Origin: Rhina ancylostomus
Taxonomy: Eukaryota
Length of the DNA stretch: 64,000 nucleotides
Direction: 5' to 3'
Assembly (NCBI GenBank): GCA_030265395.1
Contig: JARFYF010000112.1
Span: 15,700,289-15,764,288 of the forward strand
Shown here: positions 101 through 64,000 of the stretch, in pieces
Layout of the letters: every line of letters starts with the position of its first letter
Numbering within the stretch: position 1 is the first letter of the stretch
The notes under the pieces: generated by a model
Seen by the model: only the letters and a program-made list of their open reading frames with translations
What the model was told of the DNA's origin: nothing
Databases searched by the model: none
Program-made: the position numbers and the translations under genes

Positions 101-2949
101 GGATCCCACAGCCATGGTTAAGTGCTTCCTCCTCACCTAATTGCTGAGTTACTCACTACCTTACTCTCACATTGACCAAAGCATCTCCCTGACAGAGCCA
201 ACAATTCCTTCCAGTCTCCTTCTGCTGACACCTGCAACCCATTCAGCTCAAGGTCCTCAGACATGGGTTGATAAACTCAGAACATCAAAATTGGTGCTGA
301 CTAACTCTACTATTAGAATCAGGTCTTCCATACCAGCCCCACAGTTCCCAACTACTAAGGGAACCCAGAACTACATCACATTTACATAGCCTAAAATTAG
401 CTATTAAGTCCAACAGATCCATGCTGGTACCTATGCTCCATGTGATAGCAGGTTCTATATTCCAACCACTCTGCATTAAAAATTCTGACTCCCTGCTAGA
501 TTTATTGGTGGTGATCTTGCATTTCCAAACCACATCTGGCTAAATCCATCAAGGAATTTCTCCAAAGCAGCATCAGTCCTCACTACCACATTAGCTCTGT
601 GAGCCTCTCTCCCCAGGACCTCTCAAACTTTGCTTTGAGGACTCCAGTGTGTGAGGGAAAGTATACACAAGGCGATCAAGTAATGCCTCAAATTTTGTAG
701 CAGCAGGACCAAAGCCCAAATGGTCATTTCAACAACCTTTTAGTGTGCTTTTCACAATGCAGATCAATTTCAAGGCCTCTTAGCATTTCCAGTTTCCTAT
801 ATACAATCTGGCAGACACAACATAGAATATGCATAATGATAAGGGGAATTGTGTCAAATTTTGAATCAAGTTTTTAAAAAGGGATTTTTGAGTATGTATG
901 GTCAACTTCGGATTAATTTCATCTATAGGGGAATGTACATTACCCAAAACCTTCTATGTTCAATCCCCGAGAATTAGCCAGTTCCAACAAGAACGTCCAA
1001 ACTGCAAACACACAGCACCCTAGGTCAGTACAGAAACAAGTCGCTGAAGCCATGAAGAAGCACCACTAACCACAGCACTATGTGCTGCTCATGTTTTCAT
1101 ATTGATCTATCTCTATGCAAGTTTTCAAAATATCCATTTCACATTGTATTGTTCACTCTGCAGATTCCCCATCAAATATTTATGGATGTCTCTTTCTGGA
1201 AGCAATCTAGATTCTTGGATAATTACTCATTAAAGCTCACTGATAAAACCCATCAGTATCTTCTGACTTATGTACAGAAAAGATTATTTTCAGCTTCTGA
1301 CAAATTTCCCACATAAAGTGCATGAAAGTTATTTTTCCCTCCATTTTAATTTTACCTTCACCCACAGAATTTCCATCTCTTGGTAACAGATCTGAGCTTT
1401 TACTAATAGCAAGAAACTGTTTCATCTGATATCCCCCAAATTATGATTATATTTTGTCAGTTCAACCTCATGGTACCATAATTTGACATTCCAATACCAA
1501 GCACAGCTCTTTCTCATGGTTGAGACACAAAATGGAGCATGCTTCACTCATCTGCACATCTGAGCTGTAGTGGGGTCCTATGTACACCACCTGTTCAAAG
1601 AGCAACCAACCTCATTCACAAGAACACTGCCAACAAAATCATTCTGATTTTGTACTACAGATTATCCCTAACCAGATGGGAACAGCAATATCATTGGAAC
1701 TTATTGCTACATTGAGTGAAACCATTGATTCATTGATTTAATGAGGAAGAAATGGCTGATAAATTACTGGAATGGGATTAAGTATGGATGGGAGAAAATT
1801 AGATGGGGCATAAACACCAGCACCAACCAGCTAAATGACCCATTTCTGTGCTGTAAATTCAAATTACTATTGTCTTTTGTTTCCCTTTAATATATGTGGC
1901 TTTTTAATTCATCTGTAAAGCAGTCACAGGTATTCACAAAGCAGATGCTCAGAGACATCATAATAGTGCAAAACTTGTGGCCAGTTATACCCTTCACTAT
2001 TTCCAGTAGTGCACATCAAATTTTGCAACTGTCCCAGCAGATACGCATGGATCAGAGATCACGCAGGCTCCACGGGAAGCTATGATGCTAGTTCAGGAGG
2101 ATGATATACCTCCCATTGCATCACTGGAAGTGCTGGGTTGTGCACATATTAGCTGACACGAAAGTCTACACATCAAACACTTATTCAGTTCCACAGTTTA
2201 TTCATTTTTTGAGAAGGTCTTACGGATGATATTAATTGGCATGATGGAGTACTATTGCTTCTTCACTTAGCCCACCCAGCTAACTCTGTTGCAGTAGATC
2301 CAATGTGAAATCTTTGTTCACTATTCCCTTTGCATTCCCTGATCATCTTACCATTATATCCTTGACTACAATATATCCAATTAGTGAAACGCCATGCTTT
2401 CAGGCAGAAAACTTCTCTGCACTATTTTTAACTGCTTTGTGCAACATTAAAATAATTATTTTTCATTTAACTCAATAATTGCAGGAGTAAAATGAAACTT
2501 ACCTTTCAATCTGACTGTACATCTAGAAGTTCGTCAGTAATCCAATGAAAGTTTAAACAAATAACTCAGATGCTTCACTCAATTTATAGTCATTTTGGCT
2601 AAGTCAATTTTCAGAGGGAAAGGAGCCTTAAATTAATGCTAAATACTTATCTTCTGTCACCATTACATTTCTTTTCAGTCACATCTACTAAAATCAATGA
2701 TAAGAGGAAAAGCTAACCTATTATATTTTATCTGCATGCTTGCATCTTTGTCAGGCAGCTTGGATAAACTGTATTCAATGTACATTCACTAAGTAAATTT
2801 CAAATGATTAATCAATAAATGCAGTGATTAATCATAACAATTCAACAAAACTGCCAAGCTAGAAGAGATCTTATTGTTCCCAGCTCCAGTAGGAAGAAGG
2901 ATGAAGCAAAAAAAAAACAGAAGGGTTGATATGACTAAACGGCATTTAC

Positions 2950-2973
2950 CTTTTTCTCCATGGTTGGCGATGA
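2950..2973 (-). CDS. MAPK8IP3: MAPK8IP3 24-nt frame-preserving alternative microexon
   Basis: ttctgtgttaccacag|TCATCGCCAACCATGGAGAAAAAG|gtaaat, phase 2-2, encodes (N)HRQPWRK(S/R). It resembles the SPRQSWRKS insert of mammalian JIP3 isoforms at this position. Confidence 0.85.
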
Positions 2974-5794
2974 CTGTGGTAACACAGAAAACAGCCACAA
3001 CAGCAGCAACAGCATAGCACAGAGAGCAGGACGAGAAGAACACAATTAATTCACACAGTTCAAAGGTCACAAACCAGCACAACACGCAGCCAGCTGGCTA
3101 CCAGCAAGAGAAGCCCCAACGTCACAGACAAAGAAAAAGCAAGCATTGCATAAACAATATTCTACTGCACAATGAGAGCATGAGTGTAGATATGCCAGGT
3201 CACAGATAGCTGCTTTGATTTAGCAGAGTAAATGCCAAAACTTTAACTCTTCCTATTGATCATTCTAAAAGTTAATCAAAAAAGGTAACAAAATGCCATT
3301 CTTTAATATTCATTAATTTAGGACATATTCATCCAATTTAAGTTAGTAAAAGTGTTAATGTCACATGATCAAACTTCAGTGTGCAAGTTTGATATCCTTT
3401 GGGTTTACTTCTTCAGGACACCAAAAAATGTAACTAATCTTTTGCTTCTCTAATAACCAGTAGTGACATCAGTGGAATTGTCCAAAACAATAACAAAACT
3501 ATAAAAATATCAGCTGTCAAGGAGTTTCTTTAATTACTTGGCATATCTACTGGAAGTCAGCATGAGTCCAACAACACCTTGAATGCTGCTCTCCTGTCTG
3601 TACCTACTGGGCCTGAGATATCACTTAGGTGAACTCTGAAACTTTTCATAAGTAATTTGACATATCAACCATTTCATATCATGGCAAAGGATGAGACCAT
3701 TGAAACTCTCCCAAAAGAGGACTTTTGTGCATGCCAATTATACACTGGAATGGATATAGGAAGCTAAAGAAAGGGTCAAAAGGATTGATAAAATTACTGC
3801 AGATTATCCTGAGAATCATTGAAGTATTATCACAAACCTTGACACAAACTTGGCACTGATATTATATTGGTGTTGAGCCCAATAATTTCAAGATGATAAT
3901 GACCTATGTAAACATTCAGAATTTCTCAGTAACAAATGGAGCTACTGAAACTCATCACACAAGTAGATGTTGACTGGTTCCAGTGGAAGCAAAAGCCCCC
4001 CAAAATTATGGTGCAGATAGGTTTAGTTGCAGTGAGGGAGTTCACAAGAACTCCATTCAAAATCTTGTATTTTCTTGTTAAATGCTGGTTAAAATTTGAC
4101 CATACCACGGCAATCTGTCCATTTCCCAATACAATTCTCTCCCATAAAACAGTTTAGAGATGTTTTAACCTGGAAGGTTTGACAACAATTCATCAGGCAG
4201 TATAACTTTCTGCCTCCTCCAGCTAAATCTTGAACAATACCCACCACTCAGAGACGAGCACTATTGTGGATTTAATCAACTTTGCTTCATTTCGGATGTT
4301 AAATTCACCTCAACATATCAATCATTGATCCAGTGAGTGTCGTCAGCTATATCGCATTGAAGTTCACTCAAGCAGATAAATCATGCTGACATTCTCTTTG
4401 CTTTCAATTAAATTAATTATGCACCCAAATCAGAATGATATTTTGCTACTGGGAGATTTATTTGCAATTCAGACCAGTGTGGCCATCCTGTGCAAGGTCC
4501 ATGATAAAATTTTTTTTAAAGACATCCTGCAGCACCAGCTGCATAGTCTTCCAATTAAATCACATTTATACTCGGGGGACAATAAAGAATAGATATTAGG
4601 ACTATTGATGTTTGAGGTTAGTTCCAGCACTTCATATCTTAATGACCAGTAAAGGCCACACAGCTTATGCATGCTAAACAACCACATTCAATCCTGACAT
4701 TTGTCTTTTTCAGAAATTATCTACTGTGAAAGATGCATAATATCAATTTTAGGACCACTCCTTGGGGTATTCACTTAGTTGTTTAAAAACTTGAATATTA
4801 CCCAAGGTGACAACTTAAAATTTTAGAACACCTCTGGTTAGTGTGATCAAAATAATTCATGTTGGACTTTAATTAAATGCTTCTGGCAATCTAATGGAAA
4901 GTACAAAATTAAATTCCAGTCTCTCTGCCAGACTCAGACTCATCAGATTACTTTCAAATCATACTTTTTATTCTTAAGTACAATAAATAATATCAATTGT
5001 TTCATTCCTACCATTGTGTCCTTCCATTTATTTGTGTGTGCATGTTTGCTAACTTTTCTGAAACATATTCTATGCTCTGGGAAAACTACCTATCACTTTT
5101 AAATGTTTCTGCCCTCAAAAAGACTCATTCCTTTGTGGAGGTCAGTGAAGAAACTATTGGAGAATCTGACCTTTCATGTGAAGGAAAGGGGAACAGGGCT
5201 TCATTTATTTTTGGAGAGTGATGATATCAGGGACAATTAAACTAGACTACAACAGATGAAGAGTGAAGACACCATTTAAAATTAGGTATCTGCATGGAGG
5301 CAGGAAGGTCAGTTCTGTCAAGCTGAAGTTAGAATTAGCATCACTAAGGATGAGACTCAGGCTAGCAGTGAAGCCCAAACCATACCACTAAACACAGTCA
5401 GTGACAGCTCAGTAATGGTTCAATAAGGAAATATGCTGCATCACATGGCACTGAACCACAGAGACCAGCAAGGGCCTATGTTTGATTTCTGCCCCATGCT
5501 GAGTCAAGATAAAGGGTGCAGCATGACAACTGAATCACCTGTGACTCTGGGATACAACCGAGTCAGAAAGTTGAGCGCCAAGCCCCACTCCGGCAACTTA
5601 AACACAAAATCTCAGCTGCAGTTTCGGTGCAATCATGAAGAAATGCTATACTAATGGAGATGTCATCTTTCAAACGAGGAGATGTTAAATTGTCGGGTTT
5701 ACTCTAGGCTGTGACAGATTTTTGGACTCAAAGAGAAATCAAGTGAAATGGCAATTGGATGGAAAAAGAGAGTTGAGAATGGGATCAAATATAA

Positions 5795-6723
5795 TCCAGG
5801 CACCTAAAATTGATGGAGTTGTGAATAGTGTGGATAGTTGTCAAAGGATGCAGCAGGATATGGATCAGCTGGAAATTTGGATAGATGGAGTTTAATCCAG
5901 AGAAGTGAGGTGTTGCATTTTGGGACATCAAATGCAAGAGGAAAGTGTACAGTATATGGCAGGAGCCTTGGGAGCACTAATGTTCAGAGGGAGTTTGGGG
6001 TGCAAGTGCACAGCTCCCTGAAAGTGGCAATTAAGTGGATAGGGTAGTAAAGAAAGCATACAACATAGTTGCCTTCATCAGTCGGGGCACTGAGTATAAA
6101 TGTTGGCAAGCCACATTGCAGCTGTATAAAATTTTGGTTAAGCCACATTCGGAAGAATTTGTGCAGTTCTGGTTGCCACACTACAGGAAGAATGTGGAGA
6201 CTTTGGAGAGGGTGCAGAATAGGGTGCTGCCTAGTTCAAAGTACTAGCTATAAAAGGAGAGGTAGAACAAACTTGGACTGTTTACTCTGGAGCATCAGAA
6301 ATATATAAAATAGAAATATATAAAATTACGAGAGGCATAGATACTGCAGGTTAGACAGAGTCTTTTCCTCAGAGTGGAAATGTCAAATACTAGAGGACAT
6401 AGCTTTAAGATGAGAGGGGAAAGTTAAAGGAGATTTGCGAGGCAAATTTTTTTTAAGAGAGCGGTAGATGATGGGAAGGGGCTGCCAGGAAAGGTGGATA
6501 GCAGTGTTGAAGAGGCATTTAGACAGACACATGAACAGGCAAGGAATAGAGGGAGCAACAGCAATAGCAGATTCCAACATATGCAGTCCCTTCTATCTCC
6601 ATGAAAGAGGGATACAGACTATGTGCAGGCAGGTGGGATTAGTTAGATTGGTATGATGGTTAGTACAGAGATGGTGAGTCACAGGGCCTATTTCTGTGCT
6701 ATGATGTTCTATGGTCTATGTTC
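5795..6723 (+). mobile_element. CR1/HER1-like LINE 3' fragment
   Basis: Decayed RT C-terminus (EVLHFG; LYKILVKPHSEEFVQFWLPHYRKNVETLERVQ) and a TTCTATG-type tail. Confidence 0.85.
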
Positions 6724-7812
6724 TTAACTCAATTATGTCGATGGAATCAATTACTCCCCAAACTATTAACTTTAGCAATAAACAGGAATACTTGTGTAAT
6801 ATCATTTAAGTATATAACTGTGCACTACCCCAAAGTCATTTAAAGGAGTGGATGGTGCCCCATCCCATTAATTTTCTTGCTGCCTAAGGACACCCAGCCT
6901 TTGTTCATTAGTACCTTACAACAGGGCTATGACCATGAACCAACATGCTGAAACTGGTATTATTGTTGTTCCTTTGTGGCATTATCTCAGCTGCTTTTTA
7001 AAAAAAAAAATCAACAAATATATCATTAGTTACCGTCTAGGGAAGCCTACTGCATACCAAATTTTGAGCCAGGTATAAGAACATTGCATTTACAATCTCC
7101 AGTTACACAATCCATGATTCTCAAATAATCAACTAGCATTCAGACCTTCCAGGGCTCTCAGCATTTCAAAAACCTTGATTCTAATTAATCCTAACATTAA
7201 ATCTGTTACCCATACTAGTATTCTACCATTATCCTACATTTCAGGGAAAATTTTCAACTTACTAGGTGTGGCTACCAAGTGTTGAAATGGAAGCTGCACA
7301 GTTTCTACAAAAGGTAGACAATGCTCAATGTCATCTGAATGGCCCAAGTGCCAAGTTGAAAATCCATCAAGCTAATGCTGAAATTGTCCATCTAAAGTTC
7401 CACATTGATCCTGGCAATATAATTGCAAATTTTCCCTATACAATCCTGACAGAGCAATGACACTGAAGGTGAAATGATTACTTGACCCTGCCGGAATATT
7501 GATGCAACATTCATTCTACAGTGACACAAGGCTGCTGCACTCTTCCAATGACAGTACTGGTGCACAATGACAGTACAAGTTCTCTTACTCACTGAACTAA
7601 ATGCACTGGGGGATAAAAAGGTAATGAAATAACATCATGCTACAAACACACCTTTCCAGTTACATTTTACTAACTCAAAAATGGAATCTCAATCAGATAG
7701 ATGAGTACAGTTAAAAAAATTAATTACATTGATATTTTAAGCCACCCTGTGCAGACAATCCGCCACCAGCAACCTATCACAGCAAAAACAACTGGCTTAA
7801 CACAACGCTTAC

Positions 7813-7907
7813 TTGTTCCTGCTAGACATCGTTCCATCTGATTGGGCATTTCCCCCTACTTGGTGCAGCTTGGACCGTTCTATATGTTCCACGTAAGTTT
7901 GTATCAT
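7813..7907 (-). CDS. MAPK8IP3: MAPK8IP3 coding exon 4, 95 nt
   Basis: tttcactttgcag|ATGATACAA...AACAA|gtaagc gives [44 protein letters not shown] is the JIP3 version; JIP4 has MIHNYMEHLERTK. Confidence 0.96.
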
Positions 7908-8554
7908 CTGCAAAGTGAAAGAAATATTTAGTCACATAAAACAGAGGAAGATTAATTTTCATATCCCTAAATATCATTTTAGCTCTCCATCCACACAATG
8001 GAGTAGCTTGTCAGGGACAAGACACAAGGCATAAAATTGAGTGAGCTCCTGGAAACAATGATGCCCTCCAGCCTTTTCAATAGTACATTATGTACAGTAC
8101 ATTTTAAAAATATTAGAGGATGCCAATTTTGACATTTTTCTATCCATTCTACCAGCTAATACATAAAATGGTGCAGCATCAAATTTCACTCATCCTTATA
8201 TCTGAGATCTTGTAGAAGAGATTTCACCCCTTTACATTATCATTCAAGTTAATGCAAATATAGTTGGACTTGAATGGTTTGGAATAATTAAAGGAATAAC
8301 ATGTTACAAAACAGATCAATAGGAAGTTGAATTGTGCTCCTGTCCACTCTATAGTCAGTTGTTGACACTGGCCATGGTGAAAAAAGAACTTGCAACATAA
8401 CTACTAACGAGGAAAATTAAAAGGCTGAGTAAACCGGATAGTGCCAATTGTAACAGCAAAAACATAGGATTCCAGCAATTCAATGCTACAATTTTAATGC
8501 ATAATATCTGCCTTGATGTTCAATTGGTTGCAGAAGGTGACTCAACTATGCCAG

Positions 8555-8680
8555 AATAAAAAGGAAATGCTGTACACATTCAGCAGGCCAGGCAACATCC
8601 AAAGAAAGAAAAACAGAGTTAACATTTCAGGGAGATGACCTATCATCAGAACTAAAGAAAACTGGAAACCAAAAAAGTTG
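8555..8680 (-). mobile_element. Penelope-type terminal repeat fragment with a hammerhead-like motif
   Basis: aaatgctg…cagcaggccaggcaacatc…aacagagttaacatttcagg. Related copies lie near 9500, 22040, 26740, 42420 and 52830. Confidence 0.55.
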
Positions 8681-8699
8681 CAAGTTCTCATATCATATT

Positions 8700-8900
8700 T
8701 TCTTATGACACATAAGCAGGCCATTTGGCCTATCGAGTCTATGCCAACTCTCAGAGCATTCCCCTCAATCTCATCCCAACTCTGTAGCCTATTCTCCCTC
8801 ACATGTCCATCAACTCCTCTCAATTTCCGTCATCCAGCTACACTAGAGAAAATTTATAGCATGTTTCTATGAGGAATCAGAGCACCCAGAAATCCATGCA
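8700..8900 (-). mobile_element. V-SINE/HE1-like SINE fragment
   Basis: CR1-like tail (caggccatttggcc) plus a body similar to the copies at 11300-11536 and 32530-33180. Confidence 0.6.
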
Positions 8901-11068
8901 GCTTATTGGTGCAACTCTACCAACAGCTCTACCTATTGTACCAATAAGATGTCCTGCTTCAAAATAAATGTCACAGGACTTTTTCCAAGCATCTGAAGGG
9001 CATACAGACCATAAAGGCAGCACCATACACTATATTACTTGAAGACAGCAGTCTGGAAGGTGTGTCCAGCTCTACAGAGCAGTATGAAAAACATTGTCTT
9101 TCAATTGTGCCTTTCACTTCTAACCTCAGTACAAATAAACATCACCATTCTCCCAGTGTTGGGAATATAAACCTGGAGAGTAAACTTAGCCTGAATAGAT
9201 AGTGTAAAGCTGTCTCTACACTGTTCCATAAAACACTCCCAGGTCACAGGTTAGATAGAGACTTTGGAATTCAAGTCCAGGGAACAGGCTACTGACCTTC
9301 CTGGTCCTCAGATGGAGTAAAGTCACAAAGAAGGGGAAGGGGTGGAGAAAAGTAATTGTCCATGATAAGGTTGAGACCAAGAGAAGATGCATGATACCCG
9401 TGATGAGAGTGCTGGCTGAGAGGGGGCCATGAAGCCTTTTTAAAATACCCTTGTTCTTTCCACCCCTTGCTCTTCTCTGCAATAAATGTTTGATTCCTAA
9501 ACTTTCCTCAATTCGGATGAAATGTCATCACCTTGGAACATTAACCATTTCTGTCTCCACAGGAGCAATTCAGCCCCATGAGCCAGTTCTGCTATTCAGA
9601 AAGACCATAGCTGATCTGATTTTTGGTCTCAACTCCACTTTCTCTCATGATCCCCAAAAACCATGATTCTGCTATTGTAACAAAAATCTACCTCAATTTT
9701 GTAAATATTTCATGACTCACAGCTCCCTGGAGTAGAGTATTCCACAGATCCACAGCTCTGAGAGGAAAAAAAAAATTCCTTCTCGTCTCAATCTTACCCT
9801 GAGGCTATGCCCCTTGGTCCTGGAGCCTCCACCAAGAAGCGCATTTCAGAACACCATAAAGGTAAGTGCAATTGAGTGCACTACCCCATCAAGTCCTCCT
9901 GGGATCTAATTGCTTCTCAGGCTTCTAAACTTGAGAGAGTATTGACACAATCTTTCTGAATCAAGAATTTGATAGAGTCAAAAGCAGACTGGGAAAAATT
10001 AACAGTTACAAGAACAGACTGACCCTGCAATTTCATGACTTTATACACAGATCTCTGAATAAATAACAATGACTTGTGCTCACAAACCTGAATCAAAAGG
10101 AAAATCACATTCAAACCTATATGCACTAAAAGAACATATGCAATTAAAGACACATACATTGACTACAGAAATCTACAGGATTATATTTCCTATTTCTAGT
10201 AAAGTTATGATCACTAAAGGATACAGAGAGCACAAAATGTAAATCTGCCTCAGTAACCCCGACAAAGAATTGAAGAATGCTCACTATTACTCTTGCTCCT
10301 TCTACTGTCTTTAAGCTGTCTCACTGCTGATCCAACTTAGAACATTGAATGAACAGAAATTTACTCCAGCAAAATACCAAGAATATTGGGAATGTTTTCA
10401 AAGTATTCTGTGGCAAATTTGCTTTCATGAACCTCTACCTATTCCAGAGTATAAAGCAAGATCTTTACAATCTGAAGTAAAAGCTATTTAAATTTCTACT
10501 TATCCTGTGATTAGATGCAGTACTGAATATAATTTTCAGGTATGAAGATCACCTTGAGCATAATTAGATACAATACTTTGTGTAACAATAGGGTAAGTTT
10601 TCATTTTCACCCCAAGGGTAATCTGGTAGAACAGACTGACCACCTGTTATTGACTGACTACCTGGTTTTCATTTTGTAGAAAAGAATAGAACAAAAATAT
10701 CTAAGGGCTCTACATAGGGCAGATAATCTTCCCTACTAAAATATACCCAACATTGAAATTGAAACTCCATTCCCAAGTGCTTCAACTTAGGAATAGTGGG
10801 GTTACACCATTCATTTCTTCCGACATATTAATGTCAAAAATAATCTTCAGTCACTGTTACGTTCCCACAATAACCTGCAATCCGAAAGATTCCTAATTTA
10901 GCTATGCCTCAAATACCTTGCTGCAAAATACCAAATTCTCCCTCTCAGATCACCCTGCGATGACACTTGATGGCCACCTCAGACTTGTGCAAGGGTTCCA
11001 CTGTCAAAAGTCAGTGTCACTCATACGAACATGTTTGCATAGGGATATATTGACTGTTGGTCACTTAC

Positions 11069-13523: not shown

Positions 13524-13644
13524 GCTGGTCTGCATAGTTCTTAGACTTGAGCTCCAGTTGTCTACTCTGCAGCTCCAGAGATTCCACATGTGTCTGAAGT
13601 TCCTTCTTCTCCTGTTCCAGAGCATCCTCAAACTCGATAAATTT
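13524..13644 (-). CDS. MAPK8IP3: MAPK8IP3 (JIP3/JSAP1) coding exon 2, 121 nt (RH1/coiled-coil region)
   Basis: Minus strand reads gtgcttgtatag|AAATTT...GACCAGC|gtaagt and translates to [40 protein letters not shown]. This matches JIP3/JIP4; [11 protein letters not shown] is JIP3-type. Confidence 0.96.
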
Positions 13645-37648: not shown

Positions 37649-38076
37649 NNNNNNNNNNNNNNNNNNNNNNNNNNNNNNNNNNNNNNNNNNNNNNNNNNNN
37701 NNNNNNNNNNNNNNNNNNNNNNNNNNNNNNNNNNNNNNNNNNNNNNNNNNNNNNNNNNNNNNNNNNNNNNNNNNNNNNNNNNNNNNNNNNNNNNNNNNNN
37801 NNNNNNNNNNNNNNNNNNNNNNNNNNNNNNNNNNNNNNNNNNNNNNNNNNNNNNNNNNNNNNNNNNNNNNNNNNNNNNNNNNNNNNNNNNNNNNNNNNNN
37901 NNNNNNNNNNNNNNNNNNNNNNNNNNNNNNNNNNNNNNNNNNNNNNNNNNNNNNNNNNNNNNNNNNNNNNNNNNNNNNNNNNNNNNNNNNNNNNNNNNNN
38001 NNNNNNNNNNNNNNNNNNNNNNNNNNNNNNNNNNNNNNNNNNNNNNNNNNNNNNNNNNNNNNNNNNNNNNNNNNNN
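37649..38076. other. 428-N assembly gap, probable location of the MAPK8IP3 ATG-containing exon
   Basis: The N-terminal JIP3 sequence (…MSERVSGLAGSIYREFE…) was not found elsewhere in the window. The gap abuts the only CpG island and is large enough for an exon of about 106 codons. This is an inference. Confidence 0.7.
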
Positions 38077-38367
38077 AAGAAAGACCCACGCCCCTGGGCG
38101 GGGGAGGAGAGAGAGAGAATCGGCAGTCAGATGTACACCAATGCAGTCGCAGTGCATCTTAATGCAACGCCCCGTCCCCATCTCACCCACCCCCCCCCCC
38201 CGTTACGCCTCTCCCTCTCCGCAGCGACGGCCAAGATGCCTCAGGCGCACAACACCAGAACAATGCTGGCTGGGGAGACTCTCTGCAAACAAAAGCCGTC
38301 CCTGCCTGCGCCCTTCTGTCTACATCCCCAGCCCCACGGTCTCAGGCTGCTGTCATCTGTGCCGATC

Positions 38368-38375
38368 TGACGTCA
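38368..38375. promoter_or_regulatory. Perfect CRE palindrome TGACGTCA (CREB/ATF site)
   Basis: CTGACGTCAG at 38367-38376, inside the CpG island. Confidence 0.65.
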
Positions 38376-38389
38376 GGACACGGGATGTC

Positions 38390-38402
38390 TGCATTATGGG
38401 AA
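38390..38402 (-). promoter_or_regulatory. ZNF143/Staf-type motif TTCCCATAATGCA
   Basis: Plus strand TGCATTATGGGAA, 14 nt from the CRE. Confidence 0.55.
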
Positions 38403-38414
38403 ATGGGATCGCAA

Positions 38415-38439
38415 CCTCCCTCCCTCCCTCCCTCCCTCC
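38415..38439. repeat. (CCCT)n microsatellite; G-quadruplex-capable (GGGA)n on the minus strand
   Basis: cctccctccctccctccctccctcc read directly from the sequence. Confidence 0.85.
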
Positions 38440-38819
38440 GTCCGCTGCAGCCGCGGCGCTTTGCTGCAGCCCGGCTGCAAATCTCCGGGGCTCCTCGGCG
38501 CCCACTCCTTATTATCTCAGCTGACTGTAGCTCTGCCCCTCCCCGTTGGAGCAAAACGGCACCCGGAGGAGATGCATTAAATGATTGACAAGTATCGTTC
38601 GAGAAACGGAGTGTACACCCATGGATAGGCTCGGAAGAGGCTGGGCACATTTTTTTCCAGAAGGCTCAAGGAGTGACCTTTAATATTTTGAATGGATTTG
38701 ATACGGAGAACACATTCCCACCTATAGGGAGATATGGGGAAAAATGGGGAGCTTAAATGCAAAATAATTATTAATAATTCCAGTAGGGAATTAGGAGATT
38801 GTTTAGCTCACATACCGAA

Positions 38820-39960
38820 TGTGCAGTTTCTAGCAGGGTCGCCATTTATTCCCCATCTTTAATTGCCCACCTCGAACTGTTGCAGTGCATGTGGTGAAGG
38901 TACTCTCATTCAATTGCTTGCAATGAGTTGCAGGATTTTGACCCAGCAGCAATAAACAGTGACGTTGCTAAATCAGGATTGTTTGTGACTAGGAGGGGAA
39001 CCTACAAGTCCGTGTGCTCCAATGTGCCTGTTAGTGATAGAAGTTTGCTGCTGAAGTAATCTTGCTAGGTTGCTGCAGTCTATCTAGTTGAAGAGACATA
39101 CCACAGCCAGGGAGTACTGCTGAACGTTTAGAGTGATGGATGGGGTCCCAATCAAACAAACTGTTTTCTTCGGGTTGGCGTTTAGCTTCTCGCTTCTCGA
39201 GTGTTGTAATTGTGTGCATTGAGGCAAATGTAGAGCATCCATCACGCTCCTGAAACACCTTCTAATGGTGGAAAGGCTTTGTGGGCCTGGGGTTATTGTC
39301 ATTAAACATCCAACCTCTGATCTGCTCCTGTGGCCACAGTATGTGTGTGGCTGGTCCAGTTTAGTTTCTGCTTAATGGTGACTGAATAGCAGGGACTGTC
39401 ACTCTCAACCCACCTCTAAAATTCAGCATTTTTATTCATGTTTGAACCAAAGTCACGACGAGGTCTCAAGCCAGATAATACTACTGAAATCCATTATGTG
39501 CATTGAGGAACAATTTTTGGTAGCATTCGCCACAACTCCTTCCACTACTTTGTTGTTAATGGAGCATGATCTGGCATGGTAATTGTATGGCAAGACATAG
39601 CTGGGGAGCTTACTCTGAGCAATTTTCCACTTTGTTCAGGTAAGTGCCAGTTTTGCAGCTGCACTGGGATAGCTTGGTCAGAAGCACAACTAATTCGAGA
39701 GCACAAAGACTTCATCTGTACATACAAAATTTGTAAATAGCCAAAGCCTTTACTGTTTTAGATTCTTTCTGCTTCTTCTTGATATTATGTGAAGTAAACC
39801 AATTTGGCTATAGATTAGCTTCTGCTGTAGTCGGTTCCCGGGATGATACAGCAGTGGACCATTTGTGAAGTACTTCTGGCAAAAGGTAGTTGCAAATCCT
39901 TCAGGTCTTTTGCAGTCATATGCTAGGGTCCATTCATCAAGAAGAAGGGATCTTCCCAGA
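38820..39960 (-). mobile_element. Decayed LINE, same family as 17960-19960
   Basis: Shared segments, for example cctctgatctgctcctgtggccacagtatgtgtgtggctggtccagt versus 18477-18522. Confidence 0.7.
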
Positions 39961-55240: not shown

Positions 55241-57754
55241 TGTGCTTTCTGTTCATGTGCTGCCTGTAAATAGAATTGAAGAAAGAAATGGGAGGTACTC
55301 CTTTTGTTCCATCATATTTTACTCCTGATCAGTCTGCTAAATCTACCAGCAGGTGCTCTGAAGCTATTGGGTTAGGCTCGACTCTAGCTCCCAGCTTCCA
55401 AAATGCAACAATAAAGACATTGATACAGCAGTTGTGTGAGGATACCAACATTCATCAAATTGTAAAAAAGATCAGATTCAGAAGCATATTGTCCAAAAGA
55501 TCTACAACTTCATGATATTCAACCAAAGAAAGCAAATGCCAGAAATTTCCAGTTGATAATGTATTCAGCCAGCAGAAATATTCAAGTAGCTCATGCAGTA
55601 TCTGGATCTTAGAAGAAATGTATTCTGCCTTTTAAACGTTCATAATTCCCATAACTAGAGAGCAGAGTCAACCTTAAATTTTATAGCATTCAGCTGTTCT
55701 CCTGAACTTGCAATGACAACCTAGAAGTTGTTCCAGCTGATTGGTCTGTTGCAAAGAGAAACATCACAGATCACAGTCTAGAAATTAATAGGAATGGGCA
55801 AATCCACTGTGTTCCTTCTCCCCCCCCAAAAAAAAACAGGTTAGCAACTATAGAAAAAAGAAAATGAATCTAGCAATATCTGTAATATGTACCAACAGCA
55901 TTCCAGGAAAACATACCTATTCATTCCCTTGAAGTGTCCATGTTTAGATAATTGGAGACATTAAAACATATCACAATTGTGTGATCAGAAACCATGGGGG
56001 GGGGGGGGGGAGAGAAAAAAAAAAGAGGGATCTAAACCATTTCTAACAACTGATTTTATTGCATCCAAGCCATTCAAATAAAAAATTTTAAGTAACTACT
56101 CATTTGCACCTTTCTTCCCATAAGGGTGGGGAAGTGAATGACTACCAGTCTTCGAGTTGGGGATCCCAGAAACTATTGGCAAGCTTACTATTGGGGGACA
56201 GATTTAAACCTCAGTTGTGGGAATAAGTACTCAAAGGCCAGACGGACTCATCCCATTGAATCTGGCCAATAGGTTGACGGATTAAACAGCAGACAAAAGT
56301 ATGCAATATCATTTGCAATGTCATGATTTAGTAAATGGAAGATTAGAATTTCTCATTATTGGATACAACTTAAAAATACTGCTATTTTGTTCCATATGTT
56401 GATCACCAACTGGGTGAGTCCATCATGGACCCTTTGGACAATAATCCAAACAGCTCCATCTTCTTCATCTGCTGACCTTCCCCAATGATCACTAACAAAC
56501 TAACCTAAAATCAACAATGCATCATCACTCCATATCTAGTGATTTACAGCCAACACCTTTCTGTTCATTTTATTGCAGAATTTATTGATCTCCCAGCTTG
56601 TTGAAATGCTTTGTCTTGACCAGCAAGACACATCCTGATCCCTTCACTAATTCCTTGGCATCGTTGAGCACTCCATTTTGCTGTGCATCTTGAAACCCTG
56701 CCGACCCTAGTTTTTAAGGAAAAAGTCATTCCCCACTGTGTTTCCTGGCCTTCTCCAAATTCACCTACCTCTAAGTCCTCATTAAATTGCACTTGAGAAA
56801 CTCTTATGCCTATATCCCTTGCTCTCCATTTCTATAGACTTAAATCATTAACAAATGGTTAAAGTGCAAACTCTTTTCAACTCAGACAGAAGACCAAAGC
56901 TTCCCACTGCCATCAGCCTCTTTCCCCACCTGCAATATCTTAAAGTTCATCACAAAAACTATGAATTTTGCATCTGCCTTGCCTTCAAGTCCTCTACATC
57001 ATGTAGACCCATACCACATACAAAGCATTCATCAACTTGTCTTTCAACTCAGCCCATTTCCAACAGAAAACCTTTTCACTGACCATCTTCCATGCTTGAC
57101 TACTGCAATTCTTCTAACTGAGAATACAGCAAGAATAAAAAGTATGTTTGATTTGGTGGGAGGATTTATGTGAAAGGAGTTTCAGTAGCTCAGAAAAGTA
57201 CATCTGCATTTCTGAAGAAGATATCTGAATAACATTCTAATTCATATTCAAAAACAAACCTTCTGCCCTTATTGGCTGAAGTTTCAGAATATACATTTCT
57301 CATTTCCTGATTTGTCCAGTGAATTGTGGGCCCAGAAGCTTGGAAAAGCCATTCTTAACATGACCTCACTAGTGACAAACTACAGATCAGCAAACCAATA
57401 ATCAGCTGTGTTAATGCTATTATGACAACGACGGAAGCAGCACAAAGTGAAATTCTGTTTACAATTTTGCAGCTTTTACCCAGGGAGATTATGATCACAT
57501 AATTCTCAGCTCTACTTCAATATTAGTGATGCTTTTTTTTGGGTGGGGGGGGTCAGTTGGGAGAGGAACTGGTTAGTGATATTAATGTTGTTCCCCAGAA
57601 TATCATCCAACACTCCAGAGATATGGGGTGATACTGGAAGATAAAAATACCAGTAAGTCCCTGAAAAAAAAATGTAAAATTAACCACTTCCCTTCTCTCC
57701 ACCCCTGATAAACCAACACCCATGTGAATCAAACATTGTACATACAAGATCAAC

Positions 57755-57760
57755 TTTATT
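57755..57760 (-). terminator. Probable proximal polyadenylation signal (AATAAA) of the SUMO gene
   Basis: AATAAA on the minus strand about 220 nt after the stop, followed by GT-rich sequence (gggtgttggttt). Confidence 0.6.
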
Positions 57761-57982
57761 GGGATTAATCCAAAATACAAAGAAAACAAAATCAGTTTCC
57801 GGAAAGTAAAACAATGCAAAAAAAAAGCAAACTTATTGCAAAGATGGCACACAGCTCCTTAAACAACCCCACCAACATCATAACACCCCAAATATTGCAG
57901 ATTGTTCAGAATAGAGTAAAATACAGTGTGTTGAAAGAACATGTACATTGTGTGGAACATTATTTACATTAAATTACTGAGG

Positions 57983-58045
57983 TTAGCAAATTCCTCCCGT
58001 CTGCTGCTGGAATACGTCAATGGTGTCTTCGTCTTCCATTTCCAA
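57983..58045 (-). CDS. SUMO2/3: SUMO2/3-family gene, last coding exon, 63 nt including the stop
   Basis: cttctctccttggcag|TTGGAA...TGCTAA gives LEMEDEDTIDVFQQQTGGIC*, with an intact diglycine and a 2-residue tail. Confidence 0.95.
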   Translation of the reverse strand: MEMEDEDTIDVFQQQTGGIC

Positions 58046-59013
58046 CTGCCAAGGAGAGAAGAATTATTCTGTCATCCATTTATCAAAATAAAGAATATTG
58101 CACATCAATGTCCACCAATTAAAAGTGATCTTTTCTCAGATTGATTCCCCTTTCCCAACCCCTATTAAATATTCAGGCATGACTTGGAAAATACAATCAA
58201 ATCCTGCATGCTGGATCCATCCAAATTTAACTTTAGGTGCATCCTTCACATTTCCAGCAATTAAATGCATTATCCCAAATAGGCCGAGGCAACTCCAATA
58301 GAATATCATTGGTTCTTTAAGAGCCTCATGTTATCTCCATTGATTCTTAAACATACCCAGTTCAAAATTCATTTTCTTCCAGGAAAGAGCTGTGCTGGGA
58401 TTTCATCACACATCCCAACTTTTGAAAGCTAGAGGGTACTCCAGTTTCATATGCATATTAAACTGCAGTTGATGCTGCCAAGATTATACACAAGTTTCAA
58501 CTAAAACATTCAGAATTCTGCATATTTTCCCTACTGAGTACAAAATTTCTACAATCAGTACCCTAAAAAATCTGCAGCAAACCCTCACCAAGTAACCAAT
58601 ATGTAGATTTTGCAATCAGTTTGTTCCAAATTTATCTTTAAGTAACAAAACTTGACCAAAACTGCAAAATGCAGAAAAAACTCGTGAGCAACTGAACAAA
58701 TTAACCCTTTGAGCAGGTCCTTTCCCCCAAATTGTTAGTCTTTTCAAACTAACANNNNNNNNNNNNNNNNNNNNNNNNNNNNNNNNNNNNNNNNNNNNNN
58801 NNNNNNNNNNNNNNNNNNNNNNNNNNNNNNNNNNNNNNNNNNNNNNNNNNNNNNNNNNNNNNNNNNNNNNNNNNNNNNNNNNNNNNNNNNNNNNNNNNNN
58901 NNNNNNNNNNNNNNNNNNNNNNNNNNNNNNNNNNNNNNNNNNNNNNNNNNNNNNNNNNNNNNNNNNNNNNNNNNNNNNNNNNNNNNNNNNNNNNNNNNNN
59001 NNNNNNNNNNNNN

Positions 59014-59162
59014 AGAAAGGCACATGGATAATAGAGAAAAAAAAAATGGAGGGGTATGCGGGAGGAAATGGTTAGATTGATCTTAGAGTAGGTTAAAAGG
59101 TCTGCATAACATTGGGGGGGGGGGGGGGGCCAAAGGGCCTGTAATGTGCTGTTATGTTCTAA
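59014..59162 (+). mobile_element. CR1 3' tail emerging from a gap, inside the last SUMO intron
   Basis: ggcacatggat…gggccaaagggcctgtaatgtgctgttatgttcta. Confidence 0.75.
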
Positions 59163-59594
59163 ATACAGAGTGGCCAATCCCCTTTTTGTCTATAGGTTCA
59201 ACATCAAGTTCCCTGTCACTTAAATCATCTATTCTTTGGATTTTCAGGAAAGCAATGCTCAATACCAATTTGTTCATTAGCCTCAATATTGACTTTGATA
59301 ATTGAAATAATTTTAATTTTATCCTTTCTTTGGAAAAGCACTCAGAATCTGGGATGGGTGTGCTAAGCTTTACAATAATAATTAGGATGGAGGAGAATGG
59401 TGAACGACCTAGAAGGCAAGCATTCCCTGGCCCTGGACAAATAGTGCAAACCAGAAACTGGAAAGCTGATTTGGCAACAGTGGCCTACGCTTCATGGTTC
59501 TTTTGATAAAAGTGCAATATAATGGAGATCTTTAAAAGGCAAGCATTAAGATTTGCATTTGTTTCAAAGATATTTTCAATCCAAGGTTACTCAC

Positions 59595-59666
59595 CATAGC
59601 TGGAGTATCAGTTTCATTTATTGGCTGCCCATCGAAGCGAAACCTGATCTGTCTGATCTGCAAGCC
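59595..59666 (-). CDS. SUMO2/3: SUMO2/3-family gene, penultimate exon, 72 nt
   Basis: ttctgcttgcag|GGCTTG...GCTATG|gtgagt gives [24 protein letters not shown], versus SUMO2/3 [24 protein letters not shown]. The earlier exons were not found in the window. Confidence 0.95.
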
Positions 59667-61044
59667 CTGCAAGCAGAATATATTCAGCATAAAAATGATA
59701 AATTTCAGTAGGCTAGTACTTGCAATTCCATATTTTAACTGTGCTCTAAATTTTGCATGCTATCTTTTCATTTATGCAACCTTGGTCTCAATACATCCAA
59801 GCTGATGGCATTTAAGACCTTAACCACCAAGTTTAGATGGTGCTCTAGTAGTAGTGATCCTCAAAAAGATAAACTATTTGACTTGAAACAGTAAACATGG
59901 TTTTCCCAAACAACCCACCATATCTTTGGTATCTTCAAGTCCATCTCTGACACCTTCAAAGAACAAGTTTGGGATTTTGACTCCAACTTTATCCTTTCAA
60001 CCCACTATCCTCATTTTAAATATAAAGAATTTCATCCAAAACCATTTACTATATCCATATTTCAAACAGACTTTGTTTACATAGAGATTTCAGCTGCTTT
60101 TTCTTAGTCTCTCAGCTGTTCTTGTATTGAGCATGAGCACAGAAAAAAAGTTCCAGTTATGACCATGCATCCTATGAAATGTATGAAAGAGTAATACAGG
60201 ACACCATTATGAGATAGACTCAATTCCGTATTTTTTTACCCCATACAAGTCTTATTCGACTCTAAGAATAGCACCAATTACATAAAATATGAACAAACAC
60301 TAATTGACACCACATGTACAACTGTTCTATAAAAACTTGGAAGCGTAATCTTGGTTTGAAAAGACAGTTTGAGAGAAACATTATCCAACAAGACTGGCCT
60401 CCATTAAATTCACAGCACATACCATTTCCACTTGTGGTTTGATAGTCAACTCTTATGTCACGTCAATAAATTATTACCTGCCTACTTACAATTTCTAGCA
60501 ATCGAGTATTGCCACTACATTGTTCCAGTACTTTGTTCAAATCTCTCCCAAATGTCAGATAACAGCTCTACCCAGCACTGAATAGCATCCTTCCATGATG
60601 TTTNNNNNNNNNNNNNNNNNNNNNNNNNNNNNNNNNNNNNNNNNNNNNNNNNNNNNNNNNNNNNNNNNNNNNNNNNNNNNNNNNNNNNNNNNNNNNNNNN
60701 NNNGTGTTTCATTTTTCCTCACAATCCCACCCAATTCCCAATCCAATACACAATCCATTTGCTTTCTTTTGTAACATTCAACAATCGATTACAGCATCTT
60801 TCTATTCTTAACTTTCTCCTCTACCCCACCCCACCACCTCCTCTACCTACCTTAATATTCTATCAAATTACAATTGTCTTTTCACCCAATCATAGATGTT
60901 TATTTTTGTTTCTCAGACTGGCTTTTATTCTGCATGTTCAATATTAGTTTTAAAAGAATTTAACTTTGAGATTATAATTTTTTCCAATGTGATTTTCATT
61001 TAGAAATTGCTTTATCAGAAAACCATAATCACCAATTTCCCAAT

Positions 61045-61462
61045 TACACCAGGATGTTGCCTGGAATGGAGGGCTTTGGATACAAGGAGAGATTGGATAG
61101 GCTGGGATTGTTCTTACTGGAGCACACGATGATGAGGAGTGATCCCCCTCCAATGGTAGGGATGTCTAAAACTAGAGAACATAGGCTTAAGATGAGAAGG
61201 GAAATATTTAAAGGAGATCTGAGGGGCAAGATCGCCCCTGCCCCACCACCACAAAAGGTACTCAGTGTATGGAACAAGTTGCTATAGGTGGGGGTAAAGG
61301 CAGGAGGCAGGTGCATCACTGTGTTTAAAAAGCATTTGGACAAGTACATGGATAAGAAAGGAATAGAAGTGCATGAGCCAAGTGCAAGAACATGGGATTA
61401 ACATAGATAGGCATCTTTGTTGGCATGGACTAGTTGGGCCAAAGGGCCTGTTTGTGTTGTAC
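61045..61462 (+). mobile_element. CR1 3' fragment
   Basis: MLPGMEGFGYKERLDRLGLFLLE…TREHRLKM, plus the gggccaaagggcctgttt tail. Confidence 0.85.
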
Positions 61463-61984
61463 CTTAACGCCAGCTTTCAACATTCAGGCATAGTGCTAGC
61501 CTGGCTCAACTTGTCGCTTTCATCTTTGATCAAAAGATTTGCCTCAGTAATCATGTCCAACTTCGCCCTTGAAAATGTACTGTGTCAGAAGTATTTCCAA
61601 GTCTTAAACCAATTTAACAACGTGTTTGAGAAAACAAGCAGGTTACAGTTAGGGCAAGGGGTGGAGAGGAGAGAACAGATGTGATGTACACGATAGGCTG
61701 CAAACCAAAGCTGTCAAGGTAACAGTTACTTTAAAGAAAACAGCAGATGGAGACAAAAATAAAGAGAAACAAATAAAACTACAGTTATTTTAAAGTAGTT
61801 GTTACCTTGACAACTTTGATCTGCACACCACAGATATTCCTTCGTTGTCTCCACAACCCCTCCCACACAAAATACTTCCGGTTCTGACTAATGCTCCTTG
61901 ACTCAAACAAACTCCCTCCTGTTTGATCTGGTATGTGCTTCCAACATTGGTTTTAGAACACATTAGAAAACATTCTATTTTTAA

Positions 61985-64000
61985 AGAAAATAGGAATAGG
62001 CCACCAGGCTGTTCAAGCTTGCCTCAGCATTTAATATGATCATAGCTGATCCAAGCTGGCCTCAACTCATCTTGTGTTATTTCTCTATACTCATCCACCA
62101 CCACCTAAAGTACTTCTAATGATCCAGCTTTCACTACCCACCAGGACAGAATTCCAGAGGTCCATTACCTCCTGCAAGAAGAAATTTCTACATACCCTAG
62201 TTCTAAATGACCAGGCTCTTATCTTGCAATTATGTCCCCTTATTCAAGACTCCCTCTGATGAAAACATCCCAACATCTACTGTCAAGCCCCCTTAGGATC
62301 TTTTTGGGTCACACCTCATTTTTCTGAACTCCAAGGAATACAAGCCCAAAATATTTAGTATTTCTCAGTCGAACAACCCTCCCATCCCAAGAATTAGCCT
62401 GTTGAATCTCCTTTGTATTCTTGCAATTTTACTACATCTTTGATGAGGCAAGGGAACCAAAACTGTACGCAGTATTCCAGACAAGGCCTCACCAACACCT
62501 TATACAATTGCAACAAAACCTCCCTATTTTTAAACTTCAATTCCTTTGCAATGAAGGCCAACCTGAAAAATGTTTATTAAACCCACCTGCTAGCTTTTTG
62601 AGATTTATGCACCAGAACACCTAGATCCCTTAGTACCTCACTCACTTGCAGTCCCATCTGCCTTCTGATTTCTCTTGTGTATGACCTCACATCCCCACAT
62701 TAAACTCCAATTACCAGCCTTTTGCCCAATCACAATCTTTCAGAACCGAAGTACAGGAAGGAGATAGAGAGTCTATTAGCATGGTGTCAAGACAACAATC
62801 TTTTCCTCAATGTCAGCAAAATGAAGGAGCTGGTCATCGACTTCAGGAAGTGGGGTGGAGTACACATCCATGTCTGTATCAATGATGCTGAGGTGGACAT
62901 GTTTGAGAGCTTCAAGTTCCTAGGTGTAAATATTATCAATTTGTTCTGGTCCAGCACCAGGACACTATGGCCAAGATAACACACCAACATCTCTACTTTC
63001 TCAGAAGGCTAAATAAATCCCGTATGTCCCCAATGACTCTTGCCAATTTTTTTTTTAAACAGATGCACCATAGAAAGCATCCTGCCCAGATAAAAGAGTT
63101 TGGTATGGCAATGCTCTGCCCAAGACAACAAGAAATTGCAGAGAGTTGTGAATGCAGCCCAGTCCACTATGCAAACCAGACTCCCCTCCATTGACTCAGT
63201 CTATACCCTGCTGCCTCAAGAAAGCAGCTAACATAATCAAAGACCTACCTAATCTCGTCAGTCATTCTTCTCCGTCAGGCAGAAGATACAAAAGCTTGAG
63301 ACCACATACCACCAGACTTGAGGACAGCTTCAATCTCACTGTTAACAAACACTTGAACAGACCTCTCATACACTAAAAGATGAACTCTTGATCTCCCAAT
63401 CTACCTTGTCATGCCCTGGCACAGTCTACCTGCACTGAACTTTCCCTGTAACAGCAACACTATATTGCGCATTGTGTTTCATTTTACTACCTTGACGTAA
63501 TGATGTATGGATGACCTGTCTGGATGGCATGCAGAAAAACTTTTCACAGTATCTTGGTACATATGACAATAATACACCAATCCAAGCTTTATCATAACAG
63601 GCCCTTCCACCTATTTTCATATATCTGGCAAATTTGGAAATCTTACAGTCTCATCCTCCAGGTCTTTAATGTAAATCGTGAACAATTGCAGAATGATCAA
63701 GAACTGATCCCTGTTGTATTCCACTAGTTACATCCTTCCAGTTTGAAAAGGACCCATTTATTCCAACTGTTTTCAATTTATTCTAACATTCTTCCTCTGA
63801 TACCATGGATTTTAATTTATGCATCAGCCTTTTATGTGGCACCTTGTCAAATGACTGTTGGAAATCAAATACACTACATCTACAGGTTCCCTTTTGTCAA
63901 CTCTCCCTGTTACATCTTCAAAGAATTCAAGCAAATTTTTCAAACATTTCTTTCATAAAAACTACCGACTAGGTTTGATTATATTCAGCTTTCCTAAATG
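61985..64000 (-). mobile_element. Old CR1-like LINE interrupted by a Rex/Babar-like LINE
   Basis: Tail aggaataggccacc…, aactgtacgcagtattccagacaaggcctcacc; the element resumes after about 63590. Confidence 0.7.
62740..63582 (+). mobile_element. Rex1/Babar-like LINE 3' fragment
   Basis: YRKEIESLLAWCQDNNLFLNVSKMKELVIDFRK…ESFKFLGVNI, HLYFLRRL and PSGRRYKSL…TTRL, with the matching tail. Confidence 0.85.

Follow-up and report, generated by a model that had tools for sequence, protein, structure and literature searches.

A SUMO2/3-type gene of cartilaginous fish flanked by JPT2 and MAPK8IP3, likely a sister of SUMO2 from the first vertebrate genome doubling

The analysed stretch of DNA (the window; 64,000 nucleotides, G000:C112:15700289-15764288) carries the last two exons of a four-exon SUMO2/3-type gene. 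JPT2 lies upstream of this gene and MAPK8IP3 downstream, all on one strand (JPT2 > SUMO > MAPK8IP3). An earlier sequence-only reading had reported two intact exons of 72 and 63 nt with canonical splice sites, and both were recovered on the minus strand, separated by a GT-AG intron. The features are listed below; positions are those of the window unless an assembly coordinate is given, and X1 to X3 are sequencing runs described further on.

13525..13644, minus strand: MAPK8IP3 coding exon 2
38001..39000, minus strand: CpG island of the MAPK8IP3 (JIP3) promoter
57736..57982, minus strand: SUMO 3' UTR, with AATAAA at 57760-57755 and a poly-A site near 57736 (a loose poly-A end in X2)
57983..58045, minus strand: coding part of SUMO exon 4, 63 nt including TAA, ending QQQTGG-IC (di-glycine, IC tail, stop)
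58046..59594, minus strand: intron 3, GT-AG, containing a 259-N gap; joint 58044/59595 in X1-X3
59595..59666, minus strand: SUMO exon 3, 72 nt, phase 0, with a CAG acceptor and a GTGAGT donor; joined to exons 2 and 4 in X1-X3 contigs
59667..64000, minus strand: intron 2, continuing past the window end
G000:C112:15766226-15766369 (L003:1938-2081), 2 kb outside the window: SUMO exon 2, 144 nt or 48 codons

The two upstream exons were traced beyond the window. Exon 2 carries a 4-codon internal duplication and the chain site VKSE, and exon 1, of eight codons, was seen only in one X1 contig. A search for exon 1 in the assembled sequence of this genome found no copy, and its site is likely a 911-N gap (L003:6774-7684) within a CpG island 5 kb upstream of exon 2. 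The predicted precursor has 100 residues, and exons 2 to 4 match a 100-residue RefSeq ray protein, P0256, which marks the source as a ray. In exon 2 an Ile replaces the Ser41 that the remaining shark and ray proteins in the comparison have (S41I); since the same change is found in P0256 and in contigs of a related species, it is not an assembly error.

Evidence for splicing was obtained from contigs of four runs of one study on that related species (organism A), which we call transcript-like, as none of the runs is recorded as RNA and this status is a guess, and which were placed at 80% likeness on the window gene alone. Contigs of three of the four runs (X1-X3) skip intron 3 exactly, which provides the exon 3/4 junction proposed as a check, and also join exon 2 to exon 3; those of the fourth run are unspliced. 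One X2 contig ends in poly-A at 57736, below the AATAAA signal, and the X1 contig mentioned above extends into exon 1. Additionally, the basking and white shark models P0002 and P0131 predict an isoform in which exon 2 is followed by an additional segment, so that the frame is shifted and the di-glycine is lost.

JIP3-type exons were found at 13644, 11134 and 7907 of the window, and from diagnostic residues that we assume to be reliable we take them for JIP3 rather than JIP4. Coding exon 1 of MAPK8IP3 likely lies inside a 428-N gap (37649-38076). The promoter CpG island of this gene is about 19 kb downstream of the SUMO gene, in agreement with the distance and the shared strand given earlier. 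Between JPT2, SUMO and MAPK8IP3, none of 114 non-repeat open frames of at least 62 aa matched Pfam, a search that short exons would escape and in which 21 kb of the sequence is N. MRPS34, presumably a near neighbour of human MAPK8IP3, was found 15 Mb off on the same chromosome (G000:C112:30995055-31000772).

In order to count the SUMO loci of this genome, searches were performed with exon 3, exon 2 and the PF11976 profile. Two SUMO2/3 loci were detected, on C112 and C50, and none of the three genome searches returned a third; as the assembly is gapped, these counts are lower bounds. PF11976 gave 35 matches; the 20 stretches inspected were ubiquitin-like, SUMO1 or noise, and six matches on C46 lie outside the inspected set. 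SUMO1 has its own locus on C58, near 23.216 Mb. A second copy of SUMO1, lacking introns and interrupted by a TGA, is present on a small contig (G000:C25163:544-771, L025); it is likely a processed pseudogene whose parent is the gene on C58.

The C50 gene (G000:C50:38455500-38461500) is flanked by a JPT1-type exon and by NUP85 (NUP85, SUMO2 > JPT1), an arrangement that we take to hold for human SUMO2 as well, and a SPAG9/JIP4-type exon is found on the same chromosome. Each of the two SUMO2/3 loci has its own JPT, with JIP3-type exons on C112 and the SPAG9-type exon on C50. Because a separate JPT1/NUP85-linked SUMO2 is present, the window gene is not a SUMO2 that has moved, and the first of the two refutations set out in the sequence-only reading, that no such gene would exist here, failed. 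Exons 3 and 4 have the same sizes in both genes. The two coding sequences show 34 synonymous and 4 replacement codon differences among 78, and 16 of 26 four-fold sites differ, a pattern that points to an ancient duplication and to strong purifying selection. A processed pseudogene of the SUMO4 kind is ruled out by the introns, the splicing and this selection.

The second refutation was a misjoin of the assembly, and it is very improbable. There are many gaps in the region, and small contigs may be misplaced: a single NUP85-like exon (L034, G000:C112:9090584-9090715, profile positions 247-287) stands isolated on C112 and fits a 2.9-kb gap of the C50 NUP85, where this exon is missing, so that it is probably a misplaced contig. 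Against a misjoin, the gap-separated exons of the SUMO gene are correctly ordered and are joined in the transcript-like contigs, and the linkage to JPT2 recurs in independent assemblies. Taking accession order as a proxy of gene order, which is an assumption, and with some pairs assigned to species by number range, the SUMO and JPT2 accessions are consecutive in three sharks (Cetorhinus, Mustelus and Scyliorhinus torazame), while in the chimaera Callorhinchus they differ by 3. Overall they are at most 25 apart in 9 of 15 species pairs; five pairs differ by 101 to 1,662 and one by 26,505. In nine species the longest contig has the same size for the two genes. This indirect evidence from accessions and contigs places the gene beside JPT2 in most species and makes a misjoin unlikely.

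The encoded protein is of the SUMO2/3 type rather than SUMO1, with matches to PF11976 (Rad60-SLD, E 5e-24) and to SUMO2/3 structures in PDB (E ~1e-47). The hallmarks of this type are present, namely the C-terminal QQQTGG with a tail and an N-terminal psi-K-x-E site (VKSE, the equivalent of K11). Human SUMO2 (PDB 2awt and others) shares the Rad60-SLD fold family, a near-identical core and both of these hallmarks. Unlike human SUMO2, the window gene lies beside JPT2/MAPK8IP3 instead of JPT1/NUP85, has a longer N-terminus, has an xC instead of an xY tail, and carries S41I in addition to five core substitutions fixed among its relatives (R36K, H37Q, S54Q, M55I and Q75M in human SUMO2 numbering); an N-terminal insertion is fixed in sharks and rays. 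Two motifs had been singled out earlier as departures at highly conserved sites. For TPAM this was borne out, as it occurs in 14 of 252 screened proteins, all from cartilaginous fish, whereas GLQIRQ proved less exceptional, being present in a fish-type SUMO3-like sequence (L140), and the Ile at this site is also found in teleost SUMO3 and shark SUMO2. A Gln at position 37, presumably at the edge of the SIM groove, is also present in one Xenopus and one pufferfish protein. The substitutions stressed earlier are mostly mild.

Compared with human SUMO2, the core retains the di-glycine, the psi-K-x-E site and, for the most part, the beta2/alpha1 SIM groove; the roles of K11 and of the groove are those described in the portion of PMC10778024 that deals with them. 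From this conserved anatomy, a SENP protease would cleave the precursor after the di-glycine, conjugation would run via SAE1/UBA2 and UBC9, and chains would form via the VKSE lysine, as in SUMO2/3. The product is most likely an ordinary chain-forming SUMO2/3, in which the fixed differences could at most tune SIM binding.

The same distinctive protein was named in 14 species of sharks, rays and chimaeras. In protein trees this type forms a single clade from chimaera to rays (support 94/96 and 99/95), which is older than the chimaera-elasmobranch split. The gene is real, intact and conserved. It is also already annotated: NCBI models from sharks, rays and chimaera called "small ubiquitin-related modifier 3-like" or "2-A-like" are the same gene, and these names appear to have been given by similarity only. 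Moreover, NCBI calls the NUP85-type shark protein "SUMO3" (P0259, P0246), at odds with its SUMO2 neighbourhood in this genome, which suggests that the SUMO2 and SUMO3 names of shark proteins in databases are misleading. A literature search, conducted with most subscription papers outside its reach, found no paper on the origin of the gene or on its position as a likely sister of SUMO2 from the first round of genome doubling (1R).

The neighbours of both loci are paired, JPT2 with JPT1 and MAPK8IP3 with SPAG9. For the families concerned, the SUMO2/3 and JIP3/4 entries of published tables were recognised by Ensembl identifiers that we assume to be the right ones. In Lamb 2021 (PMC8040251), human 16p/chicken 14 and human 17q/chicken 18 both fall within paralogon 4, in its quadrants B and C, whose separation took place at 1R. 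In the corresponding tables of Sacerdot 2018 (PMC6193309) the tetrad is the same and includes neither human 21 nor chicken 9; the SUMO2/3 and JIP3/4 families are traced there to pre-1R chromosome 4, and SUMO2 and SUMO3 appear in one ohnologue family. SUMO2/3 and JPT are absent from the supplements seen of PMC8040251 (which hold only families of at least 3 members) and PMC10927551, and the pertinent text of PMC4866545 notes merely a vertebrate expansion. Since the published paralogon tables pair both regions as whole-genome-duplication sisters, an ohnologue origin of the window gene relative to SUMO2 is probable, and the gene is likely a remnant of the first vertebrate genome doubling. Counting against this reading, SUMO and JPT stand in opposite order at the C112 and C50 loci.

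The sequence-only reading had suggested a possible ohnologue lost in mammals. Its ohnologue part stood up to both attempted refutations; its mammalian loss was not established, and a loss, if there was one, would probably belong to the stem of bony vertebrates and not to mammals. To our knowledge, the human JPT2-MAPK8IP3 site has no SUMO gene. Human SUMO3 is, we presume, located beside UBE2G2, TSPEAR and PTTG1IP. Chicken SUMO3 lies with the same three genes on chromosome 9, according to the section of PMC12193209 that describes it. Among the genes of the SUMO3 block, ITGB2, DIP2A and PFKL belong to paralogon 1, which is foreign to the SUMO2/3 family.

The corresponding block in this genome is on C1 and comprises TSPEAR, UBE2G2 and POFUT2 (head to head), ADARB1, SLX9, ITGB2 and DIP2A, of which UBE2G2, ADARB1, ITGB2 and DIP2A were named from motifs that we take to be characteristic. 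No SUMO exon was found in the 940 kb around UBE2G2 that span TSPEAR to DIP2A, a stretch in which N makes up 11% and ten gaps measure 3-9 kb. Two patterns built on motifs that we assume to mark PTTG1IP gave no real match to that gene genome-wide, nor within the UBE2G2-ITGB2 block, and an unassembled SUMO3 is possible. As far as seen, with 15 of the 471 members of the main SUMO3-type cluster covered, each lineage has two SUMO2/3 genes, the second one at different places. As no SUMO gene was found at the SUMO3 site here, the window gene may be the SUMO3 orthologue in its original position, the bony-vertebrate copy having moved.

This reading, in which the ohnologue is the true SUMO3 at its ancestral site, a copy moved beside UBE2G2 in the bony stem, nothing was lost and the SUMO2/SUMO3 split is 1R itself, is a serious possibility that we rate below even. 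It accords with the finding of just two SUMO2/3 loci, none in the UBE2G2 block, and with the foreign paralogon of that block. Like many bird, reptile, amphibian and fish SUMO3 proteins, the window gene has a GG-xC tail, whereas shark NUP85-type and amniote SUMO2 proteins have GG-xY; it also shares Glu3 with SUMO3 and Ile55 with teleost SUMO3, and like SUMO3 it is the second SUMO2/3 gene of its genome. Bony SUMO3 differs in its R36, H37 and Q75, in having no N-terminal insertion and, as already mentioned, in its neighbours. Phylogenetic analysis was performed on proteins including a single NUP85-type shark row, with unnamed metagenome loci as outgroups and cyclostomes not represented. When the two tail residues are added, the gene nests among teleost SUMO3 (92/90) and the shark NUP85-type protein joins SUMO2 (91/96), but these residues are cleaved and fast-changing, and the topology flips with them. 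With either data set, a clade of the gene with all SUMO3 scores about 2.9 log-likelihood units worse than the best tree (p-AU 0.30 and 0.25), and the 3' UTR of the gene shows no likeness to teleost-type or mammal-type SUMO3 (p 0.10-0.95). The AU tests reject none of five groupings, the lowest p, 0.08, being that of a SUMO2+SUMO3 clade with the tail residues included. The gnathostome SUMO tree thus recovered the cartilaginous-fish clade without settling its deeper grouping.

Other residues point away from a moved SUMO3. R36 and EGVKT are common to bony SUMO2 and SUMO3, against both shark genes, and in most invertebrate-type sequences the residue at R36 is K. This speaks for SUMO3 being a copy of SUMO2 made in the bony lineage; otherwise a parallel K36R and a shared EGVKT would be required in both bony genes. 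The window gene also keeps an outgroup-like Gly before NDH, which was counted for a separate lost lineage. Homoplasy is evident from Met55, which is common to tetrapod SUMO2 and SUMO3 and is not found in teleost SUMO3.

A duplicate of SUMO2 made in the cartilaginous stem, or a relocated SUMO3, could instead have landed beside JPT2 by chance, which we consider improbable. In the best mature-protein tree the two shark genes group together, weakly (78/83); the two genes of this genome are alike at 191 of 234 nt (177 and 184 of 234 against teleost-type SUMO3), their 3' UTRs show a weak match (p 0.02-0.03, the best of 11 comparisons), and the swapped order relative to JPT would fit an independent arrival. 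The likeness is, however, explicable by shared base composition and ancestral states, the UTR match fails after correction, and by our own estimate landing beside a paralogue of SUMO2's neighbour would hit about 1 in 2,000-10,000 intergenic intervals. Furthermore, single-gene moves are rare, affecting in invertebrates less than 1% of families every 100 My according to PMC13689697.

The best explanation would be that the gene is a 1R sister of SUMO2, kept intact and spliced between JPT2 and MAPK8IP3 in cartilaginous fish, that its lineage was probably lost in the bony-vertebrate stem, and that human SUMO3 would be separate in origin, most simply a later copy of SUMO2. Two mirrored neighbourhoods are observed in this genome; the 1R date, a local swap of order with JPT, the loss in the bony stem and the separate rise of SUMO3 are our inference. 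We regard this whole account, a third SUMO2/3 lineage lost in bony vertebrates, as slightly less than an even chance; we lean slightly towards the loss because the residues of the mature chain are more constrained than the cleaved ones. A fuller version, in which this further 1R paralogue of early jawed vertebrates survived only in cartilaginous fish, kept Q75M (all) and H37Q (sharks and rays) for ~400 million years, owes binding preferences of its own to these residues, and left human SUMO3 as a younger SUMO2 copy, contrary to a published ohnologue list, is speculative and rather unlikely.

SUMO2 and SUMO3 are ~97% identical, and their origin is unreadable from sequence. Because of this near-identity, and because SUMO3 occupies a region that does not derive from the chromosome ancestral to the family, the window locus matters for the question of origin: it supplies the missing synteny, either as the birthplace of SUMO3, with the split being 1R, or as a lost vertebrate SUMO paralogue. 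It changes the history of the gene family and not the mechanism of SUMO, and it offers a natural variant for tests of SIM-binding specificity.

Two further observations concern the C1 block. The start codons of UBE2G2 and POFUT2, head to head within one CpG island, are separated by about 250 bases, a 100-N gap among them (G000:C1:67398940-67399200), and the POFUT2-ADARB1-SLX9-ITGB2 segment is inverted relative to what we take to be the human order. Finally, an element that resembles a retrotransposon, having fragments of an integrase and ends that are similar, is located about 100 kb beyond the first exon of DIP2A (G000:C1:68080500-68081900).
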